A DNA stretch of 40,917 bases from Candidatus Campbellbacteria bacterium (lineage in GTDB: Bacteria > Patescibacteriota > Minisyncoccia > Phycocordibacterales > UBA1006), in the NCBI GenBank assembly GCA_002698305.1, contig NZWR01000006.1, positions 1 to 40,917 of the forward strand. The letters are read 5' to 3'. The notes under the pieces are model-generated. The model ran no database searches and had not been told where the DNA came from. It saw nothing but the letters and a program-made list of their open reading frames with translations. Positions 5,401 through 40,917 of this stretch are shown here, piece after piece (the stretch's first letter is position 1; each line of letters begins with the position of its first letter). Made by a program: the position numbers and the translations under genes.

Positions 5401-5404
5401 AAAT

Positions 5405-5425: not shown

Positions 5426-5434
5426 ATTTTTTAC

Positions 5435-8792: not shown

Positions 8793-8842
8793 GATGGGTA
8801 TTGTACATATTTAAGCCAAAGAAAAAAGCTCTGCCAACGATA

Positions 8843-9355: not shown

Positions 9356-9381
9356 TACATACAGTATACCTAAAATAAAAA

Positions 9382-9882: not shown

Positions 9883-9945
9883 ACAAAGATTGTAGCAAAT
9901 AGCATTTTTTTTAAAAGAACTATATAATCATAAAAAATAGGACAT

Positions 9946-10503: not shown

Positions 10504-10525
10504 AATGCCCTTTCGGGCATTTTTA
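10502..10525. terminator. Bidirectional hairpin terminator
   Basis: AAAATGCCC-TTTC-GGGCATTTT between convergent genes. Confidence 0.65.
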
Positions 10526-15951: not shown

Positions 15952-15965
15952 AAAACTAGTATACC

Positions 15966-16928
15966 TTATTCTTGTTTGGACTCTTCATTTTCTTGATATT
16001 TTTGGTTTTTAGAAAAATAGGAACTCAGTAAATAGACAGGTGCAGCAAAAGTAATTAAGAAACTGAACCAAACCTTTTTCCATGTAGGTATCCTAATCCG
16101 ATCAAGAAATGGATTGAAATTTCTCTTCTTTAAAATTCTTATATTTTCACGATAAGTGTAACTTGCTAAAAGTAATGGATAAATATTTTTCCAATGCAAA
16201 AATCTTAAACCATATATTCCACGATCAAATAGCTTTTCATTTTTTTCATAGAAATACCTAAGAGCATTTTTAAGCTCCTTTGTGTGCTGTCTTTGAGCAA
16301 TCATGTTCTCAGTGACACCAAAAACAGCAAGGTCATTCATAGGTAAGTAAATACGATTTCGATCTTGATAATCTTCATCAATATCCCTGAGAAAATTTGC
16401 TAACTGCATTGCCTCACCTAAGGATTGAGCATGAGAGAAAGCCCTTACATTGTTGTATCCAATAATGTGACACATTATATGGCCTACGACAGAAGCTGAG
16501 CCCCACATATACTTTACAAGCTCGGCATATGTTCGTATGCGCATGTCGGAAGAAACATCTTCAATCATTGCTTGAATAAAGTCACCTGCATACTCAAATG
16601 GAATGTTTTTATTAGTAAATAGGAAATAATTTGCTCGTAGTATTGGATGTGTAGCATTAGATGGGCCATTCTTTATGACATGCCCCCACTCATTTTTATA
16701 CTCATAAATATTCGCATGAGTCTGGCCTGGCATTTTTAGATTTGGATTATCAACTAACTCATCAGGATATCTAACAAAAGCATAAAAAATTACTGTCGCT
16801 TTTCTAATATCTTTGGTAAATAGGCGCGTCGCAAAAGCATAGTTAGAGCCAAACGAAAAAAGAAACTGTTTACAGTATTCGTAGTCAGCATCGTATTGTG
16901 TATTAACATACGTGATATACTTAGTCAT
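15966..16928 (-). CDS. crtB: Phytoene synthase (CrtB, squalene/phytoene synthase family)
   Basis: Asp-rich motifs YPDELVD and RDIDEDY, plus an extra C-terminal TM segment. Confidence 0.8.
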   Translation of the reverse strand: MTKYITYVNTQYDADYEYCKQFLFSFGSNYAFATRLFTKDIRKATVIFYAFVRYPDELVDNPNLKMPGQTHANIYEYKNEWGHVIKNGPSNATHPILRANYFLFTNKNIPFEYAGDFIQAMIEDVSSDMRIRTYAELVKYMWGSASVVGHIMCHIIGYNNVRAFSHAQSLGEAMQLANFLRDIDEDYQDRNRIYLPMNDLAVFGVTENMIAQRQHTKELKNALRYFYEKNEKLFDRGIYGLRFLHWKNIYPLLLASYTYRENIRILKKRNFNPFLDRIRIPTWKKVWFSFLITFAAPVYLLSSYFSKNQKYQENEESKQE

Positions 16929-25275: not shown

Positions 25276-25306
25276 AAAAAAAAAGAAGCATATGCTTCTT
25301 TTTTTG
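25276..25306. terminator. Hairpin terminator
   Basis: A-run, GAAGCATATGCTTC palindrome, T-run. Confidence 0.6.
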
Positions 25307-25307
25307 T

Positions 25308-27254: not shown

Positions 27255-29197
27255 AGGTCATCAATATTCTTAATTTTAGTAAGTTCTGGTTCGATGTAAG
27301 GATCTTTCTTTAGTTTATCAACGAATTCTCGAAGAGGTGCCTGTGCCAAGCAAACGTATTTATCAGATCCTCCATAGTACACACAGAGAACACCCTCACG
27401 AACAACAGCTCCGCAAGGATATGCCACCCCGAATTTATGCTCATTCTCATACCATTGACTTGGAGCCATGATTGGATAATTACTGCGGTACAAAACTTTT
27501 TCTGGATTTTCATAATCGAGAATCATTGCACCAACTTTGTATCGGCGATCATTTGACCCAGCACCCTGATATATAACAAGCCACCCTTCATCAATTCTAA
27601 TTGGTGCAGCTGCTATGGCTATTTTATGACTATCCCAGGAATCTCCCCGAGCTTTAATACATGCCATTTCCTTTAGGTATTTTTTTCCTGGACCGAAATC
27701 AAGAGTATCAACATAATCAATTCTAATGTGCGGCCATATCCTGTGAAATAACATATATTTTCCTCGTACTTTTTCTGGATGCAAGACAACATTTTTATTT
27801 CCTTGACCGTGATACGTGGCAATGTCTGTCATCGGCTGTGGAGTTTTCCAGTTCCATTTAGCATTCAAGAAATCATTTTTACTAATCGAAGTGATAGCTG
27901 GGCGGGCCTGCTGGTATCCATTATATGCTGCGTACACCATATACAACCTACCCTCGATTTCTGTTATTCTTGGATCTTCAACTCCATGCCATATATGGCT
28001 GTCTAAATAATTACTCGGGTAGTAATTATAACCAGATTTATAACGTCCTTTTTTGAAGGTTTGTATAATCCGAGAATCAATATTTACCCCTTCAAAATTC
28101 ATCGTTGGCACATAGATAGGGTGAGTTAATCGATCAAACACAATACCATTATGACTCTTTCCATAGCCAATAACAGAAAGTCCAGCTGAACCTTCGGCTC
28201 GATACAGTAAATGCGTAGTCGAATCTATTTGAATAGCTGTTGGGTTAAAGGTTGTATGATTTTCCCAGTCGTTATGAGGATGGGGTGCAAGAATTGGGTT
28301 ATTCACATACTTTTTAAGCATTGCTTTTTCAGGATGTGGATTTCGTCTCGAATATGGTTCATGCAAATCAAGTGTATAAATATCTTTAGCACGATCATCA
28401 TAAAAATATACCTTAATCATATCTTCATTAAGATACGCACCGATAGCTGATGCTGTTATCCCAACTGAAGATTGTGAAGCAAAATAATCCCAAAAAGGAA
28501 CTTCATCAAAAAAGGCTCGCCAGTGAATGTGTCCCAGATTATCATGATCGATAAGTGCAGCTCCAAATCGATGGGTTTTAAATCCTCGCATCTCATACGA
28601 AGCATCATAGAGAACAAAAATTCCATCAGGAATAACAAAGGTTCCCACGATACGCAAAGGGCTATGATCAAATGAATCATTTCTCGGACTCAAGCTTGTT
28701 GAATGATATTCAATATCACGATCTGATAAATCTAGCTTCCGGTAACAAATTTCGCCATGAAGCGAAGTAATCAATGCAACATCTCCATTTCTCTGTTCAA
28801 CAATTTTAGTGGCGTAGCCGTTAGGGCTCTCTACCATTGATTCAGCTTTAAATTGAATACCATGTTCAGAAAGGAGGTAAATGGTTTTATATTTATTTTT
28901 AACCGCCACGGTCATCACTAATGCAAATTGACCATTTTTTAATAACGTAGCATCAAGATCACGCATATTAGGAATATGTGAACGCAAAACCGTCGAGAAG
29001 AAAATCTCTCTTCGATAGACTCTATGAACAGTATCGCTTACTAAAAATAATCTCTTTCCTTCTCTGAGAAAAAAATATACCTTATTGTCAAACCGTGCTG
29101 ATCCTATAATTTCTTTAGCAGAAGAAGCTTCTTGTTTCACATTCTGAACAAAAAGTTTCTTCAACCAATAAATAATTTTTTTTAGTAATCCAATCAT
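27245..29197 (-). CDS. GH130-family protein with a divergent N-terminal GH130-like or propeller half
   Basis: The C-terminal half has NNPILAPHPHNDWENHTTFNP, VEDPRITEIEGRLYMVYAA, EGWLVIYQG and VYYGGSDKYV. The N-terminal half has GAALIDHDN only. Confidence 0.7.
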   Translation of the reverse strand: MIGLLKKIIYWLKKLFVQNVKQEASSAKEIIGSARFDNKVYFFLREGKRLFLVSDTVHRVYRREIFFSTVLRSHIPNMRDLDATLLKNGQFALVMTVAVKNKYKTIYLLSEHGIQFKAESMVESPNGYATKIVEQRNGDVALITSLHGEICYRKLDLSDRDIEYHSTSLSPRNDSFDHSPLRIVGTFVIPDGIFVLYDASYEMRGFKTHRFGAALIDHDNLGHIHWRAFFDEVPFWDYFASQSSVGITASAIGAYLNEDMIKVYFYDDRAKDIYTLDLHEPYSRRNPHPEKAMLKKYVNNPILAPHPHNDWENHTTFNPTAIQIDSTTHLLYRAEGSAGLSVIGYGKSHNGIVFDRLTHPIYVPTMNFEGVNIDSRIIQTFKKGRYKSGYNYYPSNYLDSHIWHGVEDPRITEIEGRLYMVYAAYNGYQQARPAITSISKNDFLNAKWNWKTPQPMTDIATYHGQGNKNVVLHPEKVRGKYMLFHRIWPHIRIDYVDTLDFGPGKKYLKEMACIKARGDSWDSHKIAIAAAPIRIDEGWLVIYQGAGSNDRRYKVGAMILDYENPEKVLYRSNYPIMAPSQWYENEHKFGVAYPCGAVVREGVLCVYYGGSDKYVCLAQAPLREFVDKLKKDPYIEPELTKIKNIDDLCI

Positions 29198-29206
29198 GAA
29201 TAATGA

Positions 29207-29557
29207 CTACCGATTATATTTATCTTCAAGACGAACAATATCCTCTTCATCAAAATGACCATATGCAATCTCAAGAATCACCACCTCATCAGTAGGTGCT
29301 GCGATTCTGTGTTGTTGACCTTGTTCTACAAAAATTTCCTGCTGAGGTTCTGCTGTAAAAATAGTATCCCCCAAAGTTATTTCCGGATGACCCTGAAGAA
29401 CAAACCAATATTCACCACGATGTTTATGAGTTTGAAGAGAAAGGATTTCGCCAACATTAACTCTTAAGGTTTTAACCGTAGTTGTTTCATTCAATGTAAA
29501 CTGTCGAAAACTTCCCCACGGTTTTTGAGTTACTTGTGATGGATTCATTGTATTCAT
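29207..29557 (-). CDS. Cupin, mannose-6-phosphate isomerase type II C-terminal-domain-like
   Basis: KPWGSF...LSLQTHKHRGEYWFVLQG cupin motifs at 116 aa. Confidence 0.65.
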   Translation of the reverse strand: MNTMNPSQVTQKPWGSFRQFTLNETTTVKTLRVNVGEILSLQTHKHRGEYWFVLQGHPEITLGDTIFTAEPQQEIFVEQGQQHRIAAPTDEVVILEIAYGHFDEEDIVRLEDKYNR

Positions 29558-29568
29558 AATACCATGTA

Positions 29569-30327
29569 TTAATTATAAGCCTCAAGGACATTGTTAATAA
29601 TATCCATGGTTTCCTCTGGTCCTGAAGTATCTTTGGTATCTATAGCAGTCTTCGTTGCGGCAAAATCATTTCCACCAGGTTTAATTTCATCGCCAATAAA
29701 CAATCCATTCTCAATTTTAAATGGAACATGGTCATAAAATTCATTAATACCGTAGGCCTTATCAATTCCCGCCAGCGTAATATCTATTGATGTAGTTCCT
29801 CCAAACTTAACACTAAATTCATCTTCTAAACCAGAAAGCAAACTAACAAGTTCTTTTCTCTTAGTATAATCAGGGTCCCATGCCTTTTTAATTTCAGGTA
29901 ATTGTTCTTGTCCCAAGGCTGAGAGTGTTATTTGCGAATGCCGATCTTCAATTTGTTCACCACAAAGAATACTTTGGTCGATATCAAATGAAGCTTGCTG
30001 GAGGGCGTTTTGAAGAGATGCAATAATTCTATCTTTTTGTTGTTGAGTTAATTCCAATTCATACACAATAGTCCAGTTCCCGCTATCATAACTTCTCATA
30101 GCAGAGCCGGTTGTTGGTAAAATATATATATTACCAAGATGAGCTTCGTCAGTAAGCTGATCAATAACTTGTTTTTTTATTTGTTGAAATTTGCCTCCCG
30201 TAATAACTACAATATTTACCATGGTACTCGCTCGAGATAGTAAGTCCGCCATCTGCTTACTAATTTCCTGCTTGGAGACAGCAAGGGTTCCATCTAAATC
30301 AAAAATTAAAGTATCGTATTTTTTCAT
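29569..30327 (-). CDS. HAD-IIB hydrolase / phosphomannomutase-like
   Basis: DLDGTL motif I, GGK, and GDEIKPGGND motif IV. The start at MKKYDTLIFDLDGT (30327) is preferred over the track start at 30411. Confidence 0.7.
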   Translation of the reverse strand: MKKYDTLIFDLDGTLAVSKQEISKQMADLLSRASTMVNIVVITGGKFQQIKKQVIDQLTDEAHLGNIYILPTTGSAMRSYDSGNWTIVYELELTQQQKDRIIASLQNALQQASFDIDQSILCGEQIEDRHSQITLSALGQEQLPEIKKAWDPDYTKRKELVSLLSGLEDEFSVKFGGTTSIDITLAGIDKAYGINEFYDHVPFKIENGLFIGDEIKPGGNDFAATKTAIDTKDTSGPEETMDIINNVLEAYN

Positions 30328-30366
30328 GTGCTCAGTATAGCAAGTCTTGCTATACTGAGCACATGA
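30324..30366. promoter_or_regulatory. 43-bp perfect palindrome spanning both divergent start codons, with mirrored TGCTATACT extended -10 boxes
   Basis: Base-by-base check: 21-bp arms around T30345. CAT at 30325-30327 and ATG at 30363-30365 are inside the arms. Confidence 0.7.
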
Positions 30367-30797
30367 GTAATAAAGAAATAGTGGTGGCAGTATCTGGAGG
30401 ATTTGATCCAATTCATATTGGGCACGTTAGATATCTAGAAGAGGCAAAGAAATTAGGTGATCGGCTTGTGGTGATTATTAACAATGATAATTGGCTTACA
30501 ACAAAAAAAGGTAAAAATTTTATGAACGAAAATGATCGTAAAGAAATAATAGAAGCATTTGCATGCGTTGATAAGGTAGTCATTACGCAGCACAAAATAG
30601 ATGACAAAGACCGCAGTGTATGCAAAGCATTGGAAGAAGTCATGCCTGATATTTTTGCAAACGGTGGGGATCGATTTGCTGATGATATCCCAGAATTTAT
30701 TTTCTGTAATGATCATAATATTGAAATGAAGTTTAATATCGGACATGGCGGTAAAGTTCGTAGCTCCTCTGATCTTCTGGAACGTTATAGTAAATAA
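30363..30797 (+). CDS. Cytidylyl/adenylyltransferase-family protein (RfaE-II/TagD-like)
   Basis: GGFDPIHIGH (HxGH nucleotidyltransferase motif) at 144 aa. Confidence 0.75.
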   Translation: MSNKEIVVAVSGGFDPIHIGHVRYLEEAKKLGDRLVVIINNDNWLTTKKGKNFMNENDRKEIIEAFACVDKVVITQHKIDDKDRSVCKALEEVMPDIFANGGDRFADDIPEFIFCNDHNIEMKFNIGHGGKVRSSSDLLERYSK

Positions 30798-30852: not shown

Positions 30853-31164
30853 CTAATTGCGATGGGGGTTTGTATCATCATCTTTAGGTTTCCCCCACAT
30901 CCATTTAGGTTTTTCACCTTTTTCACGAAGAATCTTGAAAAAAGTTATTGTTAGCAAAATTGCAGGAATAATAAAGGTAAAAATGATTTCTCTTTTCGGT
31001 GATTCTGCATCAATTGTTAATGCAAAAATAATAACAAGACCAATATACACAAGAGTTACAAGCCACCCCTGCCACGTTGCAGGAATCCATCCCCAGCCAT
31101 ACAACTTTCGTCTAAACCAATATTTTTGAGGATTATCACTGAGATATTTTATATATTCTTTCAT
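30853..31164 (-). CDS. Small membrane protein (103 aa)
   Basis: Two or three TM segments. TGGTACAAT lies 6 nt upstream of the ATG. Confidence 0.5.
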   Translation of the reverse strand: MKEYIKYLSDNPQKYWFRRKLYGWGWIPATWQGWLVTLVYIGLVIIFALTIDAESPKREIIFTFIIPAILLTITFFKILREKGEKPKWMWGKPKDDDTNPHRN

Positions 31165-31239
31165 ATATAAATTGTACCAATAAGCTTCTTTCCATAAAAG
31201 AGTAACTATTTAATCTTACTTTTTTTGGAGAAAATATAG

Positions 31240-31248
31240 TGATATAAT
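31240..31248 (+). promoter_or_regulatory. Extended -10 (TGATATAAT) 8 nt upstream of the pilin ATG
   Basis: Read directly from the sequence. No Shine-Dalgarno sequence in the 8-nt gap. Confidence 0.5.
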
Positions 31249-31256
31249 TATTTGGT

Positions 31257-32003
31257 ATGAATTTAAAGAAAAAAGGATTTACATTAATAGAATTACTCGT
31301 CGTTATCGCGATTATTGGTATCTTATCAGCCGTTGTTTATACAAGTCTTGGAAGCTCAAGAGTTAAAGCCAAAGACGCGGCAATATTAACTGAAATGAAT
31401 CAAATCGCAACTGCAGTTGAATTAGAAACAAAAGCAACCGGTGATTACACTGATGTGTGTGATTTATTTGACGCAAACAACCCTCTTGAAAACTTAAAAC
31501 AAGGAGTTATTGATAATGGTGGAATCTGGGAAAGTTGTACAGATGATGCATCTTCATATGCAGTAGTGGTAACACTCAATGCACAACAAGCATTTAATAA
31601 TATCTTTAAAGCAGAAACAGTGCATGCACGAGCTTCGACAACAATGTGTCACTTAGTTGGAACACCAGAACAAGAAACTATCAATGTTATAGGAAGTACT
31701 TATGAACATACCCAACATGGTGATACGTATGGTCCATGTCCACCGCTTGCCCCATCTACCACATATGTTGGAGTTCATTCTCAAGATGAATCACTTCTTA
31801 GTGCTGAAGATATTAACAACCTGCGGCAAACAGAGGGAAGTAATTTTATTGAACCTAAGTACTACTGTACTGGGGCATCACCAACAAGTAGTATTGGTAC
31901 AGGGATTTTAAAAGGATATCTATATAAAATACCTGAAGGAGGTTGCGGATCCCCTGCTCCCTCATTCACAGCAGCCCAGTCTGCCTACGCTGAAAGAGAG
32001 TAA
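31257..32003 (+). CDS. Type IV pilin-like protein (prepilin N-terminal cleavage/methylation domain)
   Basis: KKGFTLIELLVVIAIIGILSAV leader and hydrophobic helix, with a Cys-rich variable C-terminus. Confidence 0.85.
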   Translation: MNLKKKGFTLIELLVVIAIIGILSAVVYTSLGSSRVKAKDAAILTEMNQIATAVELETKATGDYTDVCDLFDANNPLENLKQGVIDNGGIWESCTDDASSYAVVVTLNAQQAFNNIFKAETVHARASTTMCHLVGTPEQETINVIGSTYEHTQHGDTYGPCPPLAPSTTYVGVHSQDESLLSAEDINNLRQTEGSNFIEPKYYCTGASPTSSIGTGILKGYLYKIPEGGCGSPAPSFTAAQSAYAERE

Positions 32004-32011
32004 ATCTCTCT

Positions 32012-32040
32012 AAAAAAGAACCTCTTAATAGGTTCTTTTT
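32012..32040 (+). terminator. Hairpin terminator of the pilin gene
   Basis: AAAAAAGAACC-TCTTAATA-GGTTCTTTTT. Confidence 0.6.
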
Positions 32041-32063
32041 ATGTTGTGGAATTATATAACTTA

Positions 32064-32090
32064 TGATGTTCGAACTTTTGTAAAAGAAAA
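32064..32090 (-). repeat. Junction-module half-copy F (only the TGATGTTCGAAC-TTTTGTAAAAGAAAA part)
   Basis: Matches 34441-34467 and 121-147. Lacks the GCTGGCCGTTTGGG part and everything beyond it. Confidence 0.65.
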
Positions 32091-32123
32091 CTCACCAGGT
32101 AAATGATGAGTATGAGTTTAGAA

Positions 32124-32354
32124 TTAGGATAGAAGAATTTCTTCTGAGTGCAATCCACATATGAAAATTTCTCCTTTTGAATCAACTAAGTCGACAAATT
32201 TTTCCCAATAATCTTTAGGTAAGCCAGTTGCATAAAAATCTTTTACCTTTATTTCATGTATTTTGAAAGGGGTAATATATTTAGATGCATATTCTACTTG
32301 TTTTCCTGAATCTTTGAATACAACCTCGTCATCTTCATTAAAAGTATTTTGCAT
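32124..32354 (-). CDS. Hypothetical protein (76 aa), cassette 1
   Basis: Intact ORF between modules F and B. No family recognised. Confidence 0.45.
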   Translation of the reverse strand: MQNTFNEDDEVVFKDSGKQVEYASKYITPFKIHEIKVKDFYATGLPKDYWEKFVDLVDSKGEIFICGLHSEEILLS

Positions 32355-32422
32355 ATAGATTTACATTTAAATTGTTATTTATTTTTATTTGTTATTATAA
32401 TTTAATCATTATAAAATATATA

Positions 32423-32526
32423 AGTCAATATCTAACCTGTCTAGGATTCGAACTAAAAACACTATATGAAATATAGTGTTTTTAAGTAGAAAGTGTGTTG
32501 CTGGCCGTTTGGGATGATGTTCGAAC
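32423..32526 (-). repeat. Junction-module copy B (complete, type-1 hairpin)
   Basis: AGTCAA (-35 complement), CTAGGATTCGAACT, hairpin AAAAACACTATATGAAATATAGTGTTTTT (32455-32483) and GTGTGTTGCTGGCCGTTTGGGATGATGTTCGAAC. Ends at the stop codon of the next ORF. Confidence 0.8.
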
Positions 32527-32973
32527 TTATTTAAATTGAAATTCTCTTAGATAATCAATATATTCTTCTGGGAAATTATGAACTGATGCATGTTTTATGA
32601 TGTTTTCTAAATATTCTTGATTGGGAGATATTTCAATTTCAGGTATTGAAACATATAAATAACAATTGAGGAATTTGTTATTAGGAATTTGAACTTTTAT
32701 TGATTTACGAATGTAAGCACTAGGGTCTTCTATATAATCCAATGTATCTAAGTCCTCTTTTGAAATCTTATACACAATCCCATACACATTTCTCCCTTTA
32801 TTTGACTCTATACTTGCAACACCACCTTCGATATAGGTACCTTTTCTATTAAAACAAATATTATAATTAGAAATAAATCCTTTTGATAAAAATTCTGCTG
32901 TTGAGCATCGTTTTTTCATTCTCTGTTGATCTATATTAGAACCATAAGCAAAGTATAAAATACTATTTTTCAT
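32527..32973 (-). CDS. Gamma-glutamylcyclotransferase / AIG2-like family protein, cassette 2
   Basis: YFAYGSNIDQQRMKKRC N-terminal motif, VYGIVYKI...LDYIED core. TGCTATAAT lies 6 nt upstream of the ATG. Confidence 0.6.
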   Translation of the reverse strand: MKNSILYFAYGSNIDQQRMKKRCSTAEFLSKGFISNYNICFNRKGTYIEGGVASIESNKGRNVYGIVYKISKEDLDTLDYIEDPSAYIRKSIKVQIPNNKFLNCYLYVSIPEIEISPNQEYLENIIKHASVHNFPEEYIDYLREFQFK

Positions 32974-32987
32974 TTTATGATTATAGC

Positions 32988-33048
32988 AAAAATCACTAAC
33001 AAAATAAGGTGGTTTTTAGTTGCTGGCCGTTTGGGATGATGTTCGAAC
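32988..33048 (-). repeat. Junction-module copy C (partial, degenerate type-2 hairpin)
   Basis: AAAAATCAC...AAGGTGGTTTTT followed by AGTTGCTGGCCGTTTGGGATGATGTTCGAAC, which is identical to copies B and D over the arm. Confidence 0.7.
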
Positions 33049-33132
33049 TTATTTATCAAATCAAACCTTCGATTGAAGGTCTAGGTTACCACTATAATTA
33101 ACAAAATATAAATCTCAGGCATTTTATACTAA

Positions 33133-33162
33133 AAAAACCCGCACAAATTAATGCGAGTTTTT
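33133..33162 (-). terminator. Strand-specific terminator of the 33172..34263 ORF
   Basis: Minus-strand RNA CTCGCA/TGCGGG stem (one G-U pair) followed by a U-run. Confidence 0.5.
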
Positions 33163-33171
33163 AATGTAATT

Positions 33172-34263
33172 TTAGTTAGGACAAACCTGTAAACCTAATT
33201 GCTCTGGAATAGAAGGAAAACGTTTTTTGATTTCAGCAACAAGCTGTTTTTCAGCAGGAACATTTCCATATTGATCAATAATCGCAACAAGTGTTACTAC
33301 CTTTTTTTGCTGTATTTCAAACTTCTTCTTTCCTTTTTTAGTTTTAGTTTCTATCTCAACATCTTCAGTTACCACTTTATTAGCACACACAAGGGGGTCA
33401 TTATAAGCATCTAGTGCTGTTTTGAAACTCTTATAATTCACAGAAAAGCCGTTTTCATGAGCAATAATATATGTATTGATATTATTAATTGCGCATAAAC
33501 CAAGTTTTTGCTGAACTGATGCTGGTGCATCTGGTAAATCTAGCTTAACCTTTTCATCATTGTAATAAAAGTCTTCGAGTCCTTGATCAGTATTATTCGG
33601 CCATAAAACCTTTTTTCCGCTCTCTTGAAAATGTTTTCTTTCAAGGTCATAACAATACTTATAAGCATAACCTAGCAATGGATTAGTATAAGTCAAGATT
33701 TTAATTTTTTTCTTGATTGCTATATCTTCATCAGTGACCGCAAAGACACCGCAAAAAAAACTAACGATAGCAAGACTAAATAATACCCAACCTCCAAAAG
33801 TTATAAATCCTTCTGGCGATAAAAATTCAACAGCTAGTATAATCAATCCAACGGTATAAATAAGAAATGCGGGTAAACCATACATCCAATATTTATGAGT
33901 CAAATTAAGTTTATCAGCATTACTTAGATCTGCTTTCACCAAACCGTTATTGTCTATAGACTTAAAAGTGTAAAAAGGAAGCCCTTTTATCATCATTTTA
34001 AGAATATATTCTGGTAAAATTACCAACGGTTTGATACCTTTTTCTTCAAGTTCAGAACGATACTCCTCAATAGCGGTTTTTTCTACAGATAGTTTATTTT
34101 TGAGCATCTCTTTTCTTTCTGGGTTTACAAAATTTGAAAAAATTCCTGAAACTTTCTTTTTATCAAAGACAACAGAATTATCTTCAGCAAGCGTTTGAGC
34201 CATAGAATTTCTTGTATTTAAATACTCTGTTTCTAACTCTTCGGTCCATGTTTTTGTTTTCAT
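33172..34263 (-). CDS. Hypothetical protein with two central TM helices (363 aa), cassette 3
   Basis: Intact ORF with TTGACT-16-CATAAT upstream. Soluble N- and C-terminal domains flank the TM pair. No family recognised. Confidence 0.6.
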   Translation of the reverse strand: MKTKTWTEELETEYLNTRNSMAQTLAEDNSVVFDKKKVSGIFSNFVNPERKEMLKNKLSVEKTAIEEYRSELEEKGIKPLVILPEYILKMMIKGLPFYTFKSIDNNGLVKADLSNADKLNLTHKYWMYGLPAFLIYTVGLIILAVEFLSPEGFITFGGWVLFSLAIVSFFCGVFAVTDEDIAIKKKIKILTYTNPLLGYAYKYCYDLERKHFQESGKKVLWPNNTDQGLEDFYYNDEKVKLDLPDAPASVQQKLGLCAINNINTYIIAHENGFSVNYKSFKTALDAYNDPLVCANKVVTEDVEIETKTKKGKKKFEIQQKKVVTLVAIIDQYGNVPAEKQLVAEIKKRFPSIPEQLGLQVCPN

Positions 34264-34318
34264 AATCGTCGATTTTAGTTTTATTGATTTGATTTCATTA
34301 TGATGGCAAATAAAAAAA

Positions 34319-34467
34319 AGTCAATTAATTATTTAGCGATTTTTCGTTTGATATAGCAAACTAGGATAAAGTTCGAACCAAAAATCACCTTATCCTAGAA
34401 GGTGATTTTTAGATAAATATTTCTTGCTGGCCGTTTGGGATGATGTTCGAACTTTTGCAAAAGAAAA
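34319..34467 (-). repeat. Junction-module copy D (complete, type-2 hairpin)
   Basis: AGTCAA (34319-34324), CTAGGATAAAGTTCGAACC, hairpin AAAAATCACCTT-ATCCTAG-AAGGTGATTTTT (34380-34410), CTTGCTGGCCGTTTGGGATGATGTTCGAAC and TTTTGCAAAAGAAAA. Confidence 0.8.
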
Positions 34468-34493
34468 TCCATCAACTGAATCTTCTTGATGGA
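34468..34493 (-). terminator. Hairpin terminator of the 34501.. ORF
   Basis: TCCATCAA-CTGAATCTTC-TTGATGGA, then a T-rich tract on the minus strand. Confidence 0.6.
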
Positions 34494-34500
34494 TTATTAC

Positions 34501-35097
34501 TTAATTTAAATTATCAAATTTTTTTAATAAGCGATGATTATCTGTAAACGAGGGATTAGAGAAATAATCTTTGCTGTTCAAAAACTGTTGGTCGGTAATA
34601 CAGAACTTTATTCCTGAACTAAAACCTATTCCGAGTTTTTCCATATACCCATCTTCTTCACTGCACACCAACATAGAGTGGCATCTATCAGATGAATGAA
34701 ACCAGCCTAAAAAAATTGGAGGTTTGAAAGACGGGTTCCATAGAATTACGCTGTCCCAAAAATTGTTTTCTATTTGTTTTATAGTTGAAAATGGAATATT
34801 TTCTAATGAGTAGCTTTCAAGAGAATAATTTACTACACATCTATCTAATACACTTCGCACATTAACTTCGTATTCTTCCATGAAATTAGTTTCATATTCG
34901 TTCAAAGGGGATCCAACTAATAGTATTCTTTTCATAAAATTGTTTTTATTTACATAAAGCATAACCTCAAATAATTTTTTAGTAAAATTTTGTATCATAA
35001 AATTATTAAAAATAACTTGTATACAACATTCAAAAAATCGCTTAAAGATGAGGTGGTTTAATCTTTTGTAGGAAATTTTAAATAAAAAATGAGTCAT
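34501..35097 (-). CDS. Hypothetical soluble protein, cassette 4 second gene (start probably internal)
   Basis: The track start at 35097 lies inside the terminator hairpin of the upstream gene. In-frame ATGs at 34998 (TTTAAT 6 nt upstream) or 34935 (MKRILLVGSP) are more plausible. Confidence 0.5.
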   Translation of the reverse strand: MTHFLFKISYKRLNHLIFKRFFECCIQVIFNNFMIQNFTKKLFEVMLYVNKNNFMKRILLVGSPLNEYETNFMEEYEVNVRSVLDRCVVNYSLESYSLENIPFSTIKQIENNFWDSVILWNPSFKPPIFLGWFHSSDRCHSMLVCSEEDGYMEKLGIGFSSGIKFCITDQQFLNSKDYFSNPSFTDNHRLLKKFDNLN

Positions 35098-35110
35098 TTC
35101 TGACTCATTT
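35087..35110 (-). terminator. Hairpin terminator of the 35130..35939 ORF
   Basis: AAATGAGTCA-TTTC-TGACTCATTT, a 10-bp stem followed by a T-run on the minus strand. Confidence 0.65.
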
Positions 35111-35129
35111 AGATTTAAAATTAATAATA

Positions 35130-35939
35130 TTAATCTACAGCGATATCTTCTTTTTTAAACTGAAGGTAGTTAAGGTCTGGAATTTCAATTTCTAATTTTT
35201 TTCTTAATGAAGAAATCCATTGATTCATTGAGTTCTCAGATATCTCTAGGCTTTCAAGCTGATTTTTATTTATTACTAAAAGCACATCTTCAAGCTTTTC
35301 TTGGTCTTGAGCACATCTTTTTTCCCACATTTTTATTTGCTCAAAGTATCTTTTCCTACTCCTTGTAAAACGACCAATTGCTGAATCAATCCCTCTACTC
35401 AACGAAAATAGCAAATCTCTATCGACATTTTCTTTGGGAATAATTTCTGTGACCATTCGTGAATATTCTGCTAAATATTTTAGAAGTGCTTTGTAGTTAA
35501 TTGGCTCCTTACTATTATCAGATTTATCATCATCGCTAGAAACAGATGTTCGAGAATACTCAAGAGCACATGTTAGCGAACAAATAAACATTACAGGTAA
35601 AAAGAATATATCCTTATAGATTTCTTGGTTATTTAAAAATAAGATAACTTCTAGCTGAATAAAGAAAACTAATATTCCCAATATTAAAAAAGCTATATCC
35701 TTTGTCTTTTTTTTTCTTAAAGCTCTCACCGAAAGATCAAAAAAACTTAAAGATAGAAAACCTGCTAACGCAGAGATTATAACTATGCCAACATAAGCTA
35801 ACCATGGATGGGATAAATTCTCAGGATGCGCATATGTGCTTTCTAACAAGTCATATCTCGTGCCTAAGATTAAACTTAAGCCAATTATCGCTGAAATTAG
35901 AAATAGGATTCCTAAAATAAGAAAAATATATTTTTTCAT
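35130..35939 (-). CDS. Hypothetical membrane protein (4 TM, C-terminal coiled-coil-like domain), cassette 4 first gene
   Basis: Intact ORF downstream of module E. No family recognised. Confidence 0.6.
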   Translation of the reverse strand: MKKYIFLILGILFLISAIIGLSLILGTRYDLLESTYAHPENLSHPWLAYVGIVIISALAGFLSLSFFDLSVRALRKKKTKDIAFLILGILVFFIQLEVILFLNNQEIYKDIFFLPVMFICSLTCALEYSRTSVSSDDDKSDNSKEPINYKALLKYLAEYSRMVTEIIPKENVDRDLLFSLSRGIDSAIGRFTRSRKRYFEQIKMWEKRCAQDQEKLEDVLLVINKNQLESLEISENSMNQWISSLRKKLEIEIPDLNYLQFKKEDIAVD

Positions 35940-35991
35940 AATAAATTATTTAAGGTGTTATTTTATTCATTCAATCATTTAAACATTTATT

Positions 35992-36078
35992 AGTCAACAT
36001 ATAACCTGTTTAAGATTCGAACTAAAAACACTATCTGAAATATAGTGTTTTTTTAAGTAAATAGTGTGTTGCTGGCCG
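35992..36078 (-). repeat. Junction-module half-copy E (promoter, hairpin and GTTGCTGGCCG part only)
   Basis: AGTCAACATATAACCTGTTTAAGATTCGAACT, hairpin at 36024-36054, and GTGTGTTGCTGGCCG. Homology to the other copies stops after GGCCG at 36078. Confidence 0.75.
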
Positions 36079-36231
36079 AGTTGAGCTAGAACCGTGGTCG
36101 GTCAAGCCCTGTAAGGTATATTTATTAAGTTTTGAATATAATTTCAGACCCGTCCTGAGCACCTATATATTTCTCAAAAAGTGACAAAAGTGACACAGGA
36201 AAGCATTTTAAAGTTACATCCGTCTGTAATC

Positions 36232-37353
36232 TTATAAAAGCTCAAAAGGTTGATTAATAACCTCTGAATAATACTGTGATTGTTGTTCCAAATATTTTTT
36301 ACTGTCACTAAAGACCTTTGAATGAGCAGAACCAAATTGGTATGCATTAATCATTCTAGAAAATATCAATTGGTCTTCTTTGCTCCTTAGAAAATTTTCT
36401 CCATCCATTCTCAATTTAGGATGAAAAATAATTGCCTTACAAGGTGTAAGCGGTAAGGCAAGAGTTAAGTTTATATTTTTCATATCCCACCACACCGGGA
36501 AGTTCCACCAACCTCGAGAATTCTCAAAAAACAGAACTGGATTATCAGAGATTACAAATTTATTATCTGTTCCAGTAGTATCCAATATAAGAATATTTTT
36601 CTCATGAATATTTTGACTTATTTCACTCGCAATAATTTGTGAAAGTAATCTAGTGATAGATTCTACACTTTTGCCTGTCAGAGTAATTTTCTTACTATAA
36701 CTATTTAATTCCTCTTGTGTTACCTTAAATGAATTATTAATAATGATATTTTGAACAGTTTTTGGGTTAAATTCATGATCATTAACAAAAAGTTCTTTTT
36801 TGAAATCCAAGTTTTTTTCAGTGACTAAGAAAGAAATAAATTTATGTAGATTTTCATAAAAGTATGGAGTTCTTGTGATCTGGTGAGCAATAAAGGTTGC
36901 AATAATTGATGACTCAAGAAAGGTAAAATTTTGTGTTTTTTTAATATCTTGAATATATCGAACAACTCGCGACATTGATTCTTCTAGGTTTCCATAGACT
37001 TGTTTTTCAGCATAATCAGATTTATTTCCCTGTTTATCATCAAAAATATAGAAGTCTGTTTCTTGTGCTGCGTCTACTATTTTTTCGTCTGTAATACTTT
37101 TATTCTCAATAGAGAAGGCATATACAAAACCTAACTTACTTTGATCATCAGAAACACTAAATTTCTTCAGAATGAACTGAGGTATATAATGACCTCGAGC
37201 TTCACCATTATAAGTATTTTTGTAATAAGTTAATCGCCCAAGAATATTCATAATAAAAAAGATGATTCTTGCCTCAAATCTTGTTTTTCCTAATCTGTTT
37301 CTTAAACAAAAGCCAATAAAAGAACCGTGTTGTTTCGATAACCATTTTCTCAT
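36232..37353 (-). CDS. DUF4238-family protein
   Basis: N-terminal HYIPQFILKKFS matches the DUF4238 signature (HYVPQFYLxxF), about 370 aa. TGCTATTAT lies 6 nt upstream of the ATG. Confidence 0.55.
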   Translation of the reverse strand: MRKWLSKQHGSFIGFCLRNRLGKTRFEARIIFFIMNILGRLTYYKNTYNGEARGHYIPQFILKKFSVSDDQSKLGFVYAFSIENKSITDEKIVDAAQETDFYIFDDKQGNKSDYAEKQVYGNLEESMSRVVRYIQDIKKTQNFTFLESSIIATFIAHQITRTPYFYENLHKFISFLVTEKNLDFKKELFVNDHEFNPKTVQNIIINNSFKVTQEELNSYSKKITLTGKSVESITRLLSQIIASEISQNIHEKNILILDTTGTDNKFVISDNPVLFFENSRGWWNFPVWWDMKNINLTLALPLTPCKAIIFHPKLRMDGENFLRSKEDQLIFSRMINAYQFGSAHSKVFSDSKKYLEQQSQYYSEVINQPFELL

Positions 37354-37456
37354 TTATTTATAATAGCATTTTTATACTACTGTCTACCAAATAATGTTAC
37401 CAACAACCAACCCTATACTCGCTTAGCAAACATTCATATTGCGACATAATGTATAT

Positions 37457-38776
37457 ATGAATACAGTAACAAATGCACAAATAGGTTCAGCCCCAGTCAT
37501 TATTCAAAAAGATATCAACTATGTCCTCTATGCTCGTAAGTCTACTGAGAGTGACGAGAAACAAGCTCTCTCGATTGATTCACAAGTAAAAGAGATGAGA
37601 CAAATAGCAGAGCGAGATAATCTGAATATCATAGATATAAGACGTGAATCACATTCAGCAAAAGATTCAGGAAAACGACCAGTGTTTCTTGAAATATTAA
37701 ATGACTTACGATCTGGTAGATATACAGGAATACTCACATGGGCACCTGATAGGTTGAGTCGTAATGCTGGCGACCTTGGTTCATTAGTTGATTTAATGGA
37801 TGAAGGTAAACTCCAAGAAATCAGAACCTATGGTCAAAATTTCAAGAACTCACCAAATGAAAAATTTCTGTTAATGATTCTTTGCTCTCAAGCAAAGCTA
37901 GAGAATGATAACAAGAGCATTAATGTAAAACGAGGATTACGAACCAGAGTTGAAATGGGATTGTGGCCATCAGTAGCTCCTACAGGATATCTGAACCAAA
38001 AAATGATGGATAAGAAAGGAGAAGTAATTATTGATCCAGATCGAGGTCATATCATTAAACAAATATTTGAGAAAGTAGCCTATGAAAAGTGGTCAGGAAG
38101 AAAGATATACAACTGGCTCAAGTTTGATATGAATTTCAAGACAGCTCGTGGAAATAAAAGTCTTTCACTCAGTAACATCTATCTGATACTAGAAAACACC
38201 TTTTACTATGGTGTTTTCCAATACCCTAAAAAGAGTGGTAACTGGTATACAGGAATTCATAAACCCCTCGTTACCAAAGAACTCTATGATCTCGTACAAG
38301 ATCAAGTGAAAAGTAACATCCTAAGAGTTGAAAACAAAGAATTTGCTTTTACAAAACTTATGACCTGCGGATTGTGCGGTTCTGGTATTTCTGCCGACGA
38401 GAAGTTCAAGAAACTCAAAAATGGAGGCGTTAATCGACATGTATATTACGGATGTACAAGAAGTAAGGATAGGAATTGTATGGGTGGATATATTAATGAA
38501 ATTGATCTGATTAAACAATTTCAGAAACTTATTGAACAAGTGAAAATTTCTGAGAAAAGCATGAGGAACAAGATTAAGGAAGAAGTATCACAAATCAAAA
38601 AGTTTAATCAATTGCTACTTGGTATTGAGCAAGACATCAGCGTCAGCTCAATTGATATTCAAAACTATGCGAAGTTCATTTTGAAAGAGGGTTCGATAGA
38701 TGAGAAACGTGAGTTGCTTGGGTGTTTGAATGGAAAGATTGTTTTGAAGGATAAGAAGTTGGGGTTGGTAAAATAA
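37457..38776 (+). CDS. Large serine recombinase
   Basis: Resolvase catalytic domain (YARKSTESD...DRLSRN), a recombinase domain, the zinc ribbon CGLCGS...YYGCTRSKDRNC and a C-terminal coiled coil. ATG at 37457 lies 6 nt after CATAAT; the track start is a TTG at 37439. Confidence 0.85.
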   Translation: MNTVTNAQIGSAPVIIQKDINYVLYARKSTESDEKQALSIDSQVKEMRQIAERDNLNIIDIRRESHSAKDSGKRPVFLEILNDLRSGRYTGILTWAPDRLSRNAGDLGSLVDLMDEGKLQEIRTYGQNFKNSPNEKFLLMILCSQAKLENDNKSINVKRGLRTRVEMGLWPSVAPTGYLNQKMMDKKGEVIIDPDRGHIIKQIFEKVAYEKWSGRKIYNWLKFDMNFKTARGNKSLSLSNIYLILENTFYYGVFQYPKKSGNWYTGIHKPLVTKELYDLVQDQVKSNILRVENKEFAFTKLMTCGLCGSGISADEKFKKLKNGGVNRHVYYGCTRSKDRNCMGGYINEIDLIKQFQKLIEQVKISEKSMRNKIKEEVSQIKKFNQLLLGIEQDISVSSIDIQNYAKFILKEGSIDEKRELLGCLNGKIVLKDKKLGLVK

Positions 38777-38795
38777 AAACCCATAGTGGGTTTTT
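38775..38795. terminator. Bidirectional hairpin
   Basis: AAAAACCCA-TAG-TGGGTTTTT between convergent genes. Confidence 0.6.
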
Positions 38796-39243
38796 ATTTT
38801 AATCTTTGTAGAATTTCCTTCATCTGAGTAATCTCTTCTTTCTGAGCTGAAACAATATCATCACATAGCTGTATTATTTCAGGATCAGTAATCGAGGATT
38901 CCTGACACACGGTAATGGCTCCTGAGTGATGAGGTATCATTGATTTCAAAAACATTTCATTTCCTACAAATAACTGAGTTCGTATAGCAATAAATGCAAA
39001 CACAAATAATGCAGAACTTGCTATATACAAAATAGTATTAAGTTTTTTATTAGGATACATGCTTCTCATAACATAGAGCATGAGGATTATCATTGGAGGA
39101 ACCATCACCAATGCCATATAAAGAGGTCGGGTACTAAAGAAATACGCATCAGTAATACTATCAATCACTACATATGATAGACAGTACATGATGATAAAAT
39201 GTATTCCTACAGTTGTAAGTAATTTTTTATACATAGATTTCAT
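38794..39243 (-). CDS. DUF305-family membrane-anchored protein (copper-associated)
   Basis: MIPHHSGAI motif with three N-terminal TM helices. Adjacent to the multicopper oxidase. Confidence 0.65.
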   Translation of the reverse strand: MKSMYKKLLTTVGIHFIIMYCLSYVVIDSITDAYFFSTRPLYMALVMVPPMIILMLYVMRSMYPNKKLNTILYIASSALFVFAFIAIRTQLFVGNEMFLKSMIPHHSGAITVCQESSITDPEIIQLCDDIVSAQKEEITQMKEILQRLK

Positions 39244-39249
39244 ATAGTA

Positions 39250-40917
39250 TTATTTTACCTTAAATCCAAACATCATGCCTGCATGTAAGTGCTCTGCAAT
39301 ATGACAATGAGTCATCCAAGTTCCAGGATTCGACATTTCGACCAACACATCAATTGTTTGACCTGTCGGTATCAGCGTTGTGTCTTTCCATTGTAAATTT
39401 TTATTTGGCACACCGTCACGTTCGAGCACCACAAATCGCTGTCCATGGAAGTGAATAGGATGTTGCATTGGATGCATTGAATTTGGATCATTGTAGATAC
39501 GAATTTTGACCAAGTCTCCTTGATTAAATGACCAATCAATATTCATATTCTTTTCTCCTGTCGCTTGATCAATAATTTGCCATTCTATGTTTTGATCGTT
39601 AGACATTTGATTCATCATTGCCATATCATCTTCCCATTCAATCCCATCATTTTGATGATCTTGTGGTTTTTTATTATTAAGGTAAGGCTCACAGCCAGCC
39701 ATGTTCGGCATCATCTGGCAATGTTCAATAGCTTGATCTTTTGTCATTTCCATTCCCATTAAGGTAATTTTTTGAGAATCCATCATCATTGATCCGTGAT
39801 CCATGTTTTGCATATTGTCTCCCGTCATCATACCTTGCATCCCTCCTTTCATTTCAATGTTAAAACGGAGAGATTTGTCGGGTTTCTTTGATAAAAAGTT
39901 GTTGATGTTATCAAGAACAATTTTATAGTCATTACTATTATCTCGCAATTGATTGAAAGTGCTTATTGAAGAATCTTTTTCTGATTCAGTTACTATAACT
40001 TCACCGATTTTTTGACCTCGGTGATTAATAGCGAAGGTACCAGCTTGGGGGTACAACGTTTCTATAACATATCGTTCCGCAGGTGCAATAACAACATTGT
40101 CGATGAATTCTTCTTTTTGGATTCGCCCAACGTCCCCACCAACATGCTTAATTTTTGATCCCTTAAATTCAAGGTCAAAAACACGCGTGTTGGCTACATT
40201 GGTCAAAAAGAAACGATTAAGCTGTCCTTTTTCTACTGTCACCTTGAAATCTTTTTTGTCATTAATGAGCAAGGTATCTCCAAATCGACCCATCAAGGTA
40301 TGAGTGACTTTCTCACTATCAAATTCTTCTTGTTCAAGGAAGTCATCAAAAATAAGATACTCTTCTTGATTTGCTTCACTCCAATATCCTAACTCTCCAT
40401 CTACAATAATGTTTCCATAGAGGCCTAGTTCTTGAGTATAATCCTCGCGTATATGAGGATGGTACCAGTACACACCTTCATCTGGAAACGTCAGAGTGTA
40501 CGAAAATGTTTCTCCTGGTTTAATTGGCTCTTGGGTAATATCAGGAACTCCGTCAAATTTATTATCAAGGCGTAGCCCATGTGAATGAAGGGTGGTATCA
40601 ACGTCAATACTGTTTTTCAGATTCACGGTAACTGACGCACCTTTTTGCACCTTAATAACAGGTCCTGGTATCTGACCATTATAGGCAAGTCGCTTTATCA
40701 TACGACCTCCGACCTCTTGTTTTACGATGCTTGCCTCTAGGTCGAACGTATCTCCGTCTGATAGGTTAATAATAGAACTTGACTCTAGCGTCTTATAGGT
40801 ATCAATGTCATCAATATACGACAATGATTGATTTTGAACTTCTTTAACAGATGTATTATTGTTATTAAAAATAATCAAAACAATAACACCAAGTATTAAA
40901 ATTCCTATAAGGATTAT
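39250..40917 (-). CDS. Multicopper oxidase with a Met-rich insert (CopA/CueO-like), 5' end outside the window
   Basis: Copper-ligand motifs HSHG, WYHPH, HPIHFHG and HCHIAEHLHAGM. The Met/His-rich segment is MKGGMQGMMTGDNMQNMDHGSMMMD. The frame stays open upstream of the track TTG start and encodes a signal-like IILIGILILGVIV. Confidence 0.8.
   Translation of the reverse strand: MILIGILILGVIVLIIFNNNNTSVKEVQNQSLSYIDDIDTYKTLESSSIINLSDGDTFDLEASIVKQEVGGRMIKRLAYNGQIPGPVIKVQKGASVTVNLKNSIDVDTTLHSHGLRLDNKFDGVPDITQEPIKPGETFSYTLTFPDEGVYWYHPHIREDYTQELGLYGNIIVDGELGYWSEANQEEYLIFDDFLEQEEFDSEKVTHTLMGRFGDTLLINDKKDFKVTVEKGQLNRFFLTNVANTRVFDLEFKGSKIKHVGGDVGRIQKEEFIDNVVIAPAERYVIETLYPQAGTFAINHRGQKIGEVIVTESEKDSSISTFNQLRDNSNDYKIVLDNINNFLSKKPDKSLRFNIEMKGGMQGMMTGDNMQNMDHGSMMMDSQKITLMGMEMTKDQAIEHCQMMPNMAGCEPYLNNKKPQDHQNDGIEWEDDMAMMNQMSNDQNIEWQIIDQATGEKNMNIDWSFNQGDLVKIRIYNDPNSMHPMQHPIHFHGQRFVVLERDGVPNKNLQWKDTTLIPTGQTIDVLVEMSNPGTWMTHCHIAEHLHAGMMFGFKVK

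Follow-up and report, generated by a model that had tools for sequence, protein, structure and literature searches.

What process strings unrelated genes together behind copies of one and the same sequence? The question is raised by a 40,917-nt stretch of contig NZWR01000006.1 from a Candidatus Campbellbacteria bacterium (the window), in which copies and half-copies of a conserved module punctuate the region between 32 and 36 kb. An earlier reading of this DNA, made from the letters alone (the original prediction), had described the region as a head-to-tail array of unrelated cargo with one conserved site of constant orientation, and this description holds. We put the probability at roughly 0.75 that the array is a genomic island anchored at a tRNA-Gln gene and built up as large serine recombinase (LSR) elements integrated site-specifically, one after another.

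We write the module as X-GC|TG-P', where X is the left arm (head), P' the right half-site (core) and the vertical bar the break. Two LSRs have to be told apart: LSR(i) is the enzyme encoded in the window and LSR(ii) the family cognate to the cores. Related contigs compared with the window carry L-numbers; L001 is a 388-kb contig of the metagenome-assembled genome 'bacterium Co_bin.90'. The module copies in the array are as follows.

32063-32090, plus strand: F, a truncated P'(ii) half-site (repeat family D4) in which the outer part ATGATGTTCGAACTTTTGTAAAAGAAAA is kept
32390-32528, plus strand: module B, head family 1, GC|TG at 32500-32503, P'(ii) at 32504-32528
32988-33050, plus strand: module C, short head, GC|TG at 33022-33025, P'(ii) at 33026-33050
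34319-34454, plus strand: module D, head family 2, GC|TG at 34426-34429, P'(ii) at 34430-34454
35956-36074, plus strand: head of E, head family 1 (repeat family D1, 83%), GC|TG at 36071-36074

The half-site P' is the 25-bp core GCCGTTTGGGATGATGTTCGAACTT. The 27-nt core GCTGGCCGTTTGGGATGATGTTCGAAC is present in exactly three exact copies in the window (none expected), and the 29-mer TTGCTGGCCGTTTGGGATGATGTTCGAAC has exact matches at 32498, 33020 and 34424, where 100 shuffles gave an expectation of zero. Half copies of the module close both ends of the array. F consists of ATGATGTTCGAAC and the T-tract of the cassette-1 terminator and is the eroded distal end; E keeps its head and GTTGCTGGCCG (to 36078), after which a different conserved sequence begins. 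All five copies were found within 1-2 nt of where the original prediction had placed them, and its list lacked a sixth copy (60-133) and a module-like tRNA trailer (606-730), both of which lie at the left end of the window:

60-133, plus strand: sixth module copy, head family 2 (TCACC hairpin), GC|TG at 107-110, P'(ii) variant GCAGACTGGGATGACGTTCGAAC
189-590, minus strand: 133-aa cargo gene, a recombinase-less cassette between the core copy at 107-133 and tRNA-Gln(ctg)
606-732, plus strand: trailer of tRNA-Gln(ctg), head family 1, with a promoter-like stretch, a degenerate T-arm fragment and the hairpin AAAAACACTATATGAAATATAGTGTTTTT
731-802, minus strand: tRNA-Gln(CTG), an intact attB-type site with the predicted crossover TG at 733-734 and TTCGAAC 12-18 bp away

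This tRNA-Gln gene, the only tRNA detected by ARAGORN, explains the anatomy of the module. The 125 nt on its 3' side (606-730) are homologous to the heads of B and E, with 77-78% identity to the latter, and the trailer hairpin AAAAACACTATATGAAATATAGTGTTTTT (folding energy -12.9 kcal/mol, z -5.8) is identical in module B and differs by one base in E. The "second GTTCGAA box" of B (32441-32453) is a 13/13 match to tRNA-Gln positions 51-63. The head X is a tRNA-Gln trailer in which a terminator hairpin and an old T-arm fragment are accompanied by a promoter-like stretch that precedes the next gene; what had been taken for an insulator terminator, a second GTTCGAA and a promoter is this trailer. 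The sixth copy has four mismatches in its core, and window 1-139, which contains it, is 89.9% identical to L007 2875-3023.

The heads are homologous over 95-150 nt and form two families, family 1 at 606-730, 32390-32501 and 35956-36072, and family 2 at 37-106 and 34319-34427. The head of B contains TTGACT, the T-arm fragment just mentioned and a hairpin at 32455-32483, and that of D contains TTGACT, AAGTTCGAAC at 34371-34380 and a hairpin at 34381-34409. The A5-stem-T5 hairpin ascribed to every full module is strong in B (-13.3 kcal/mol, z -6.7), D (-15.5, z -4.8) and E (-9.6, z -3.7) and degenerate in C (-2.2, z -0.1). Likewise, the second GTTCGAA occurs in B, D and E, and is missing from C together with the T-arm fragment and TTGACT. 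In a consensus scan of the AT-rich stretch, sigma-70-like promoter matches numbered 16 against 24 +/- 5 expected from shuffles; since this is not above chance, the TTGACT "-35 box" is a sequence feature and not evidence of a promoter. Head homology stops 20-35 nt ahead of the cargo start codons, and heads of these families also occur in L001, L006, L007 and L010, joined to unrelated cargo across genomes.

The core, too, takes its form from the tRNA gene. When the tRNA (GCTG CTCGACTAGGA-----TTCGAAC) is aligned with the core (GCTG GCCGTTTGGGATGATGTTCGAAC), the core stands where the tRNA has its 3' end; it is a mimic of the acceptor strand, T-stem and T-loop of tRNA-Gln into which 5 bp are inserted and whose acceptor sequence differs. 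A variant of the core without the 5-nt insertion exists at L006 3779. The repeated core is not a displaced tRNA copy: true copies of the tRNA end are extras, located at L002 4511, L006 3666 and 3779, and window 32441-32453 (13 nt). Core arrays lie 3' of tRNA-Gln in the window (107-133/731-802), L002, L007, L036 and L035, with the tRNA on the opposite strand in the relatives, and all cores within these arrays are oriented like the tRNA 3' end. The L006 array adjoins a truncated tRNA-Gln, and core orientation is uniform within every locus. An intact tRNA stands at the end of the array, with the repeats in its 3'-end orientation, at window 731-802 and in L002, L007, L036, L018, L020 and L022; the tRNA belonging to the F-E array itself is outside the window, and L022 (96.8% identical) is the only contig that shows it.

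Sequence rather than structure is conserved in the core, whose sole internal dyad is the 8-bp GTTCGAAC. A protein-coding core was considered because the copies vary at every third base (frame L-A-V-W-D-D-V-R-T), yet most copies have no preceding open reading frame (ORF); the pattern stems from the LSR(ii) ORF, which reads through attP. A structured RNA was rejected as well: with a cutoff of E <= 1, Rfam has nothing relevant in 31000-37500, the sole match being a chance Leu-leader on a terminator. In L002, which represents a GC-richer organism, a 130-bp segment is duplicated before tRNA-Gln and before a diverged core (1462-1590 and 4533-4662); within it the 3' end of tRNA-Gln is present in inverted orientation, and the tRNA end is repeated nearby in exact 21-nt direct copies.

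Comparison of related contigs places the break. The first 1,326 nt of L007 (1-1326; CopA, CsoR and a terminator) are 100% identical to L022, and the identity ends directly after GCTG. L022 presents the unoccupied site, ...CACAACCTGGCTG|CCAGACTAGGATTCGAACC (tRNA). In L007, the left junction consists of the L022 left arm followed by |GCCGTTTGGGATGATGTTCGAAC, and the right junction joins the LSR(ii) 3' end to the tRNA as ...CCTGAACTGCTG|CCAGACTAGG, also written ...GTGTCCTGAACTGCTG|CCAGACTAGGATTCGAACC. As read from these sequences, the L022 and L007 junctions are the expected outcome of attP x attB recombination. The predicted attP, an LSR 3' end followed by the core, was indeed found at L001 6040-6090, behind an LSR(ii) pseudogene. 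All four junction types (attB, attP, attL, attR) are thus present: X-GCTG-tRNA in L022 and at window 721-750, X-GCTG-core at L007 1323 and in window modules B, C and D, LSR-GCTG-core at L001 6040-6090, and LSR-GCTG-tRNA at L007 6800. The only part common to them is the short GCTG. Similarly, L036 and L007 share 99.96% identity along 4.6 kb and cease to be related 2 nt to the left of a core's GCTG. The comparison of strains proposed with the original prediction therefore yields breaks inside the module among relatives (L007/L022 and L036/L007) and none in the population of the window. A crossover within the palindromic GTTCGAAC, on the right margin of the core, was rejected because the L022/L007 comparison puts the break directly after GCTG.

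The recombinases joined to the cores are of the LSR(ii) family. Their genes adjoin tRNA-Gln and read into the tRNA gene, and their products have the Resolvase, Recombinase and Zn-ribbon domains also found in the window LSR. The L007 gene (5328-6818) runs into tRNA-Gln(TTG) and ends in ...YTELCPELLPD*; in L001, an internally deleted copy (pseudogene) runs into the core and ends in ...YTELCPELLAVWDDVRTYYNKK*. Of the 17 closest LSR(ii) proteins retrieved, counting the cluster of the query itself, 15 have LLPD* or LLLD* at their C-terminus; these endings are translations of the tRNA-Gln acceptor variants CTGCCAGACTAG and CTGCTCGACTAG, CCAGAC giving PD and CTCGAC giving LD. Because the C-termini follow the acceptor variants, the tRNA-Gln gene provides the final codons and the TAG stop. 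In the attP configuration, the LSR(ii) frame would be about 14 codons longer (...LLAVWDDVRTYYNKK*; L007 6780-6818, L001 6040-6106, P0121-P0136), so the C-terminus would depend on the integration state. L035 has a full 6.7-kb LSR(ii) element with a Rep gene (REP_ORF2-G2P; 8211-9077). At L007 4076-5112, beside LSR(ii), an IS3-family insertion sequence (HTH_Tnp_1 and rve) splits a methyltransferase-like cargo gene.

The geometry of the sites is that of serine integrases. The TTCGAAC motif lies 17-23 bp from TG in the core and 12-18 bp from it in tRNA-Gln. In a Listeria phage integrase, the attP half-site measures 25 bp, and the ZD motif occupies bp 16-24 in attP and bp 11-19 in attB (PMC3783163). 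The offsets observed here fit this published geometry, with the core as an attP-type half-site and the tRNA end as an attB-type one. The dinucleotide exchanged is probably TG, which is the dyad centre of the LSR(i) site described below and part of the GCTG common to all junctions, and LSR(ii) would be the catalyst of integration.

The array is bordered on its right by a second, different element, in which the following features were recognized.

36075-36219, plus strand: a conserved element of ~145-150 nt adjoining the LSR(i) gene (LAE), which is the distal end (P' arm) of the LSR(i) island and starts with the half-site GCCGAGTTGAGCTAGAAC
36232-37353, minus strand: DUF4238 gene, occupying the variable LAE-LSR(i) slot and missing from the L022 island, which is 96.8% identical
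37439-38776, plus strand: LSR(i), with Resolvase (PF00239), Recombinase (PF07508) and Zn-ribbon (PF13408) domains
38794-40917, minus strand: cargo of the LSR(i) island, DUF305 and multicopper oxidase

Pfam thus confirms both neighbours that the array had been said to abut, the DUF4238 gene and the large serine recombinase. The stretch from 36075 to past 40917 is an LSR(i) island with copper-resistance genes. In L022, the island continues through DsbA, DUF3105, CopA and CsoR up to tRNA-Gln(ttg), the tRNA gene that was predicted beyond the right end of the window. Its tRNA-proximal arm (...GTGCTAGCACAACCTGGC|TG) and its LAE end (TG|GCCGAGTTGAGCTAGAAC) are inverted repeats (16/24 and 16/25) centred on TG, so LSR(i) has its own dyad-symmetric attP, and these arms match the core at only 8-9/25 positions. 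The site starts directly after E: at junction E, the outer end of the LSR(i) island meets the older array in its last trailer-type head, and the E head is now fused to that island end, not to a tRNA or a core.

After its half-site, LAE comprises ~145 nt of conserved non-coding DNA containing the direct repeat GTGACAAAAGTGACAC. It is 75-83% conserved beside LSR(i) in L010-L014, L018, L020 and L022, with a varying gene or none in between, and its consensus fold is weak (-12.3 kcal/mol, one compensatory pair). The LSR(i) island spans LAE to tRNA-Gln in L018, L020 and L022, and tRNA-Gln lies 4.5-7.5 kb past the LSR(i) 3' end in these three and in L015; near the L015 LSR no LAE-like sequence was found. 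A hidden tRNA at the flank of E was rejected, as ARAGORN finds none and LAE can be re-read as the P' arm. LSR(i) and LSR(ii) are 35% identical. The relatives of LSR(i) have 438-440 aa, which rules out a C-terminal truncation of the window enzyme and indicates that its real start is probably an internal ATG.

Several side observations concern this island. The variable slot, a second one, is located between LAE and the LSR(i) promoter and adjoins the direct repeat GTGACAAAAGTGACAC (window 36181-36231 and 36232-37353). Its occupant is DUF4238 in the window and a PD-T7-1/5-like gene in L010 (5002-5961), with other genes in L012 (8445-9023), L013 (1747-2256) and L018, and it is empty in L022 (11851-11902); the L013 gene has a PADLOC match to a C-terminal fragment of a type I restriction endonuclease. 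The LSR(i) island at L018 3378-5278 carries Thoeris-like genes (ThsA_Macro, ThsB_TIR) and restriction-modification genes, and a tandem duplicate of tRNA-Gln(TTG) stands beside the L015 island (15853-16055). In the syntenic L012, the LSR(i) gene has 87% nucleotide identity to that of the window (37404-38779 versus 9140-10517) and the flanking GH130/mannose-metabolism genes 71% (25289-30773 versus 242-5803); this higher conservation suggests recent transfer or strong constraint.

Taken as a mechanism, serial integration would proceed as follows. A circle with X-TG-P' and cargo would recombine with any sequence of the form anything-TG-tRNA, restoring the tRNA and a usable target; new units would thus enter beside the tRNA and displace older ones outward. 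Entry always at the tRNA would produce an array of single orientation with one scar per event, and the target would be restored, since the tRNA side appears to be the one part of the site that counts. In the window, four units (76; 148; 363; 269+198 aa) would have accumulated before the LSR(i) copper island was inserted at the same TG, parting the array from its tRNA and making junction E. L007 has the reverse order, with the copper island first and the LSR(ii) array later, between island and tRNA, which indicates that both LSR families share one exchange point. Junctions of attL-like and attP-like type would have been reused as targets, and units without a recombinase would have been mobilised in trans.

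Several observations weigh against this history. Neither a gene nor a relic of LSR(ii) is present in the whole 41-kb window. The attP of LSR(ii) has weak dyad symmetry (12/25), the recombinase-less cassette junctions have none (7/22), and the left arms of these junctions, like the natural tRNA trailer, have no half-site similarity (7-8/22). LSRs of the canonical kind recombine attP with attB only and require two half-sites, so the integration of recombinase-less units would need tolerance for arbitrary left arms. Such tolerance is indirectly suggested by L007, where LSR(ii) appears to have integrated beside a foreign P(i) arm. Canonical enzymes would also not reuse attL-like or attP-like junctions (PMC3783163). 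The F-E array is 99.98-100% identical in at least seven marine contigs (including Tara) of the window's population, so that nothing points to present mobility. These identical contigs are the basis for a marine origin of the window, and the marine samples ERZ2782996 and ERZ840839 contain the window array together with the LSR(ii) locus. In this population, no presence/absence variants of cassettes were found, and the only variants break outside the modules, at window 34292 (L027 2183, L028 1563) and 33324 (L032 670). Finally, the integration model leaves unexplained why two conserved head families precede unrelated cargo. Two side observations concern these variants: in L027 and L028, both marine assemblies, the 100%-identical 363-aa gene stands directly behind GFO_IDH/DAO genes, with the break 29 nt upstream of its ATG, and L032 has a mosaic variant of the same gene.

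How the units came to lack a recombinase is a point on which explanations diverge. We tentatively entertain a bolder form of the island reading, a counterpart of integrons in Patescibacteria, in which LSR(ii) captures, excises and reshuffles recombinase-less cassettes in trans at tRNA-Gln; each cassette would comprise 1-2 genes, a 25-bp attP-type half-site and a trailer head that may give terminator and promoter. If true, one specific half-site per partner suffices and the target is self-regenerating. Somewhat less likely is that the same sites delimit former full LSR(ii) elements, which have lost the recombinase and other genes and now form an inert graveyard. Such decay would account for the array unit of L001 that contains the deleted LSR(ii) pseudogene, for the full element with its Rep gene in L035, for the invariance of the window array in at least seven contigs with LSR(ii) not nearby, and for the decayed hairpin of C and the truncation of F. 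It fits poorly with the window units, none of which contains an LSR relic, and with the heads found left of every core in place of an LSR 3' end as at L001 6063. Two conserved head families common to different genomes, and a recombinase-less unit at the intact tRNA-Gln(ctg), the most recent position, speak against it too. The absence of relics, the heads before the cores and this tRNA-adjacent unit are also what favours mobilisation in trans.

Mobilisation by the adjacent enzyme, as in a model that builds on the original prediction and sees a new integron-like platform where LSR(i) (37439-38776) captures and shuffles cassettes via the module, is improbable. LSR(i) is divergent from the array, like intI in an integron, also adjoins core arrays in L010 and L013, and belongs to a family that is abundant and well conserved in Patescibacteria (more than 120 clusters at 68-95% identity, named as Patescibacteria or Parcubacteria recombinases, names from which the lineage was assigned to Patescibacteria). 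The enzyme has its own dyad-symmetric site, however; junction E is the end of its own island, the syntenic L012 has LSR(i) and LAE with no adjoining cores, and the cores are joined to LSR(ii) 3' ends. The co-occurrence of LSR(i) and core arrays follows from their shared tRNA-Gln target. The link between array and recombinases stands, with another LSR as the core-matching enzyme. We consider it very improbable that the module is a dispersed repeat, of the repetitive extragenic palindrome (REP) or miniature inverted-repeat transposable element (MITE) type, or a duplicate of a terminator-promoter unit, and owes its spread to transposition, gene conversion or tandem duplication and not to site-specific recombination. 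A module copy does lie 32 kb away in the window, the 95-150 nt of head homology could favour homologous exchange, and the two variant breaks fall outside the module. Against this, copies have a single orientation per locus and are tied to tRNA-Gln, terminal inverted repeats and target duplications are lacking, and breaks occur at GC|TG; the unrelated cargo rules out tandem duplication. Nor, in the one genome matched, is the module evenly scattered, in agreement with the original prediction. The core matched one genome of the genome collection (L001, at least seven copies within 8 kb, with other cargo) and eight metagenome contigs, and all exact 23-mer copies in the 388-kb L001 contig fall within a single 8-kb stretch. 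Viral contigs gave no core matches, and a phage origin was rejected on these grounds.

The island that we favour, in an uncultivated ultrasmall bacterium, represents a known kind of process, LSR integration and accretion at a tRNA gene, with several unusual traits, and not a new kind of system. The original prediction knew of no system with this architecture; the core is now recognized as an LSR attP-type half-site, and analogues have been described, although the literature searched holds no description of this arrangement in Patescibacteria. In the islands formed by staphylococcal cassette chromosomes (SCC), junctions as a rule bear one and the same short direct repeat. Composite SCC islands include in tandem recombinase-less pseudo-SCC units, e.g. 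a cop/ars unit (bioRxiv 10.1101/336396). The two systems share insertion by LSRs at one conserved site, a target that is regenerated so that elements stack in tandem, metal-resistance cargo and recombinase-less units. This likeness is functional and does not imply membership: SCC elements are inserted by Ccr-family recombinases in the 3' end of rlmH and the present ones in that of tRNA-Gln, the present units are far smaller (0.4-1.6 kb, 1-2 genes) in a Patescibacteria-like lineage, and their repeat, an attP-type half-site offset by 5 bp, does not copy the target. Prochlorococcus tycheposons and Islander-type islands also integrate at tRNA 3' ends, a minority of them by LSRs (bioRxiv 10.1101/2020.12.28.424599; PMC4383910). 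There, too, neighbours are parted only by a partial tRNA copy, newcomers push older elements inward and degraded remnants persist. These elements, however, use mostly tyrosine integrases and their repeats are true copies of the tRNA end, whereas in the present array a mimic longer by 5 bp is repeated, the majority of units lack a recombinase or replication gene, and two LSR families share one crossover.

The integrases of A118/LI, phiC31 and Bxb1 have the same Resolvase, Recombinase and zinc-ribbon domain set. As with these enzymes of phages and integrative and conjugative elements, attB and attP give attL and attR around a short common core, and the 25-bp attP half-site has its outer motif 5 bp further out than attB (PMC3783163). 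Here, in contrast, each site has one conserved half, the recombinase ORF ends in the target tRNA gene, and junctions expected to be inert (attL-like or attP-like) appear to be reused as targets. Integrons resemble the array in its single orientation, its small, unrelated and mostly single-gene cassettes, the recombinase nearby and insertion proximal to the anchor. The array is not an integron, as the original prediction stated: among the ten genes within or beside it that were scanned with Pfam, there is no IntI or other tyrosine recombinase, the sole recombinase being an LSR, and the core has no attC-type imperfect palindrome or evidence of single-strand folding. Moreover, its cassettes bring their own upstream heads, and its anchor is a tRNA gene. 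The verdict against clustered regularly interspaced short palindromic repeats (CRISPR) also holds, since their defining features are absent.

This island offers a concrete mechanism by which streamlined, uncultivated Patescibacteria-like bacteria may acquire and stack accessory genes (pilins, metal resistance, defence) at one tRNA gene. Two LSR families are defined along with their natural attB, attP, attL and attR sequences. One family appears to accept an arbitrary second half-site and to reuse the product site, unlike canonical serine integrases, and such tolerance would be relevant to serine-integrase engineering. The LSR(ii) frame, which ends in the tRNA when integrated and is longer in attP, suggests a state-dependent protein end. 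Even if recombinase-less units are immobile, tRNA-adjacent "junction modules" are still best annotated as attachment-site scars.

The cargo of the array agrees in size and strand with the ORFs originally listed:

32124-32354, minus strand: cassette 1, 76 aa, no family match, with an intrinsic-terminator-like site at 32111-32090
32527-32973, minus strand: cassette 2, 148 aa, gamma-glutamyl cyclotransferase / AIG2-like (PF13772, 3.5e-14; PF06094, 3.8e-13)
33172-34263, minus strand: cassette 3, 363 aa, predicted membrane protein, no family match
34501-35939, minus strand: cassette 4, 269 + 198 aa, the former a membrane protein at 35130-35939, the latter at 34501-35097

A terminator-like hairpin separates the two genes of cassette 4. 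PADLOC gave no match among the window cassette proteins or DUF4238, and the 133-aa cargo protein beside tRNA-Gln(ctg) matched neither Pfam nor PADLOC. A defence function of the window cargo was rejected, as PADLOC matches are limited to the slot genes of L010 and L013. The cargo of the relatives, encoded on either strand, includes pilin-like proteins, GGACT, a DUF2268 protease, a cold-shock protein, a HAD hydrolase and many unknowns. A 207-aa cassette recurs in three neighbourhoods (window; L007; L036/L009). Outside the array, window 30324-30366 forms a perfect palindrome of 21+21 nt with a 1-nt centre (TCATGTGCTCAGTATAGCAAG C CTTGCTATACTGAGCACATGA), located between divergent HAD-hydrolase and cytidylyltransferase genes and possibly serving as an operator.

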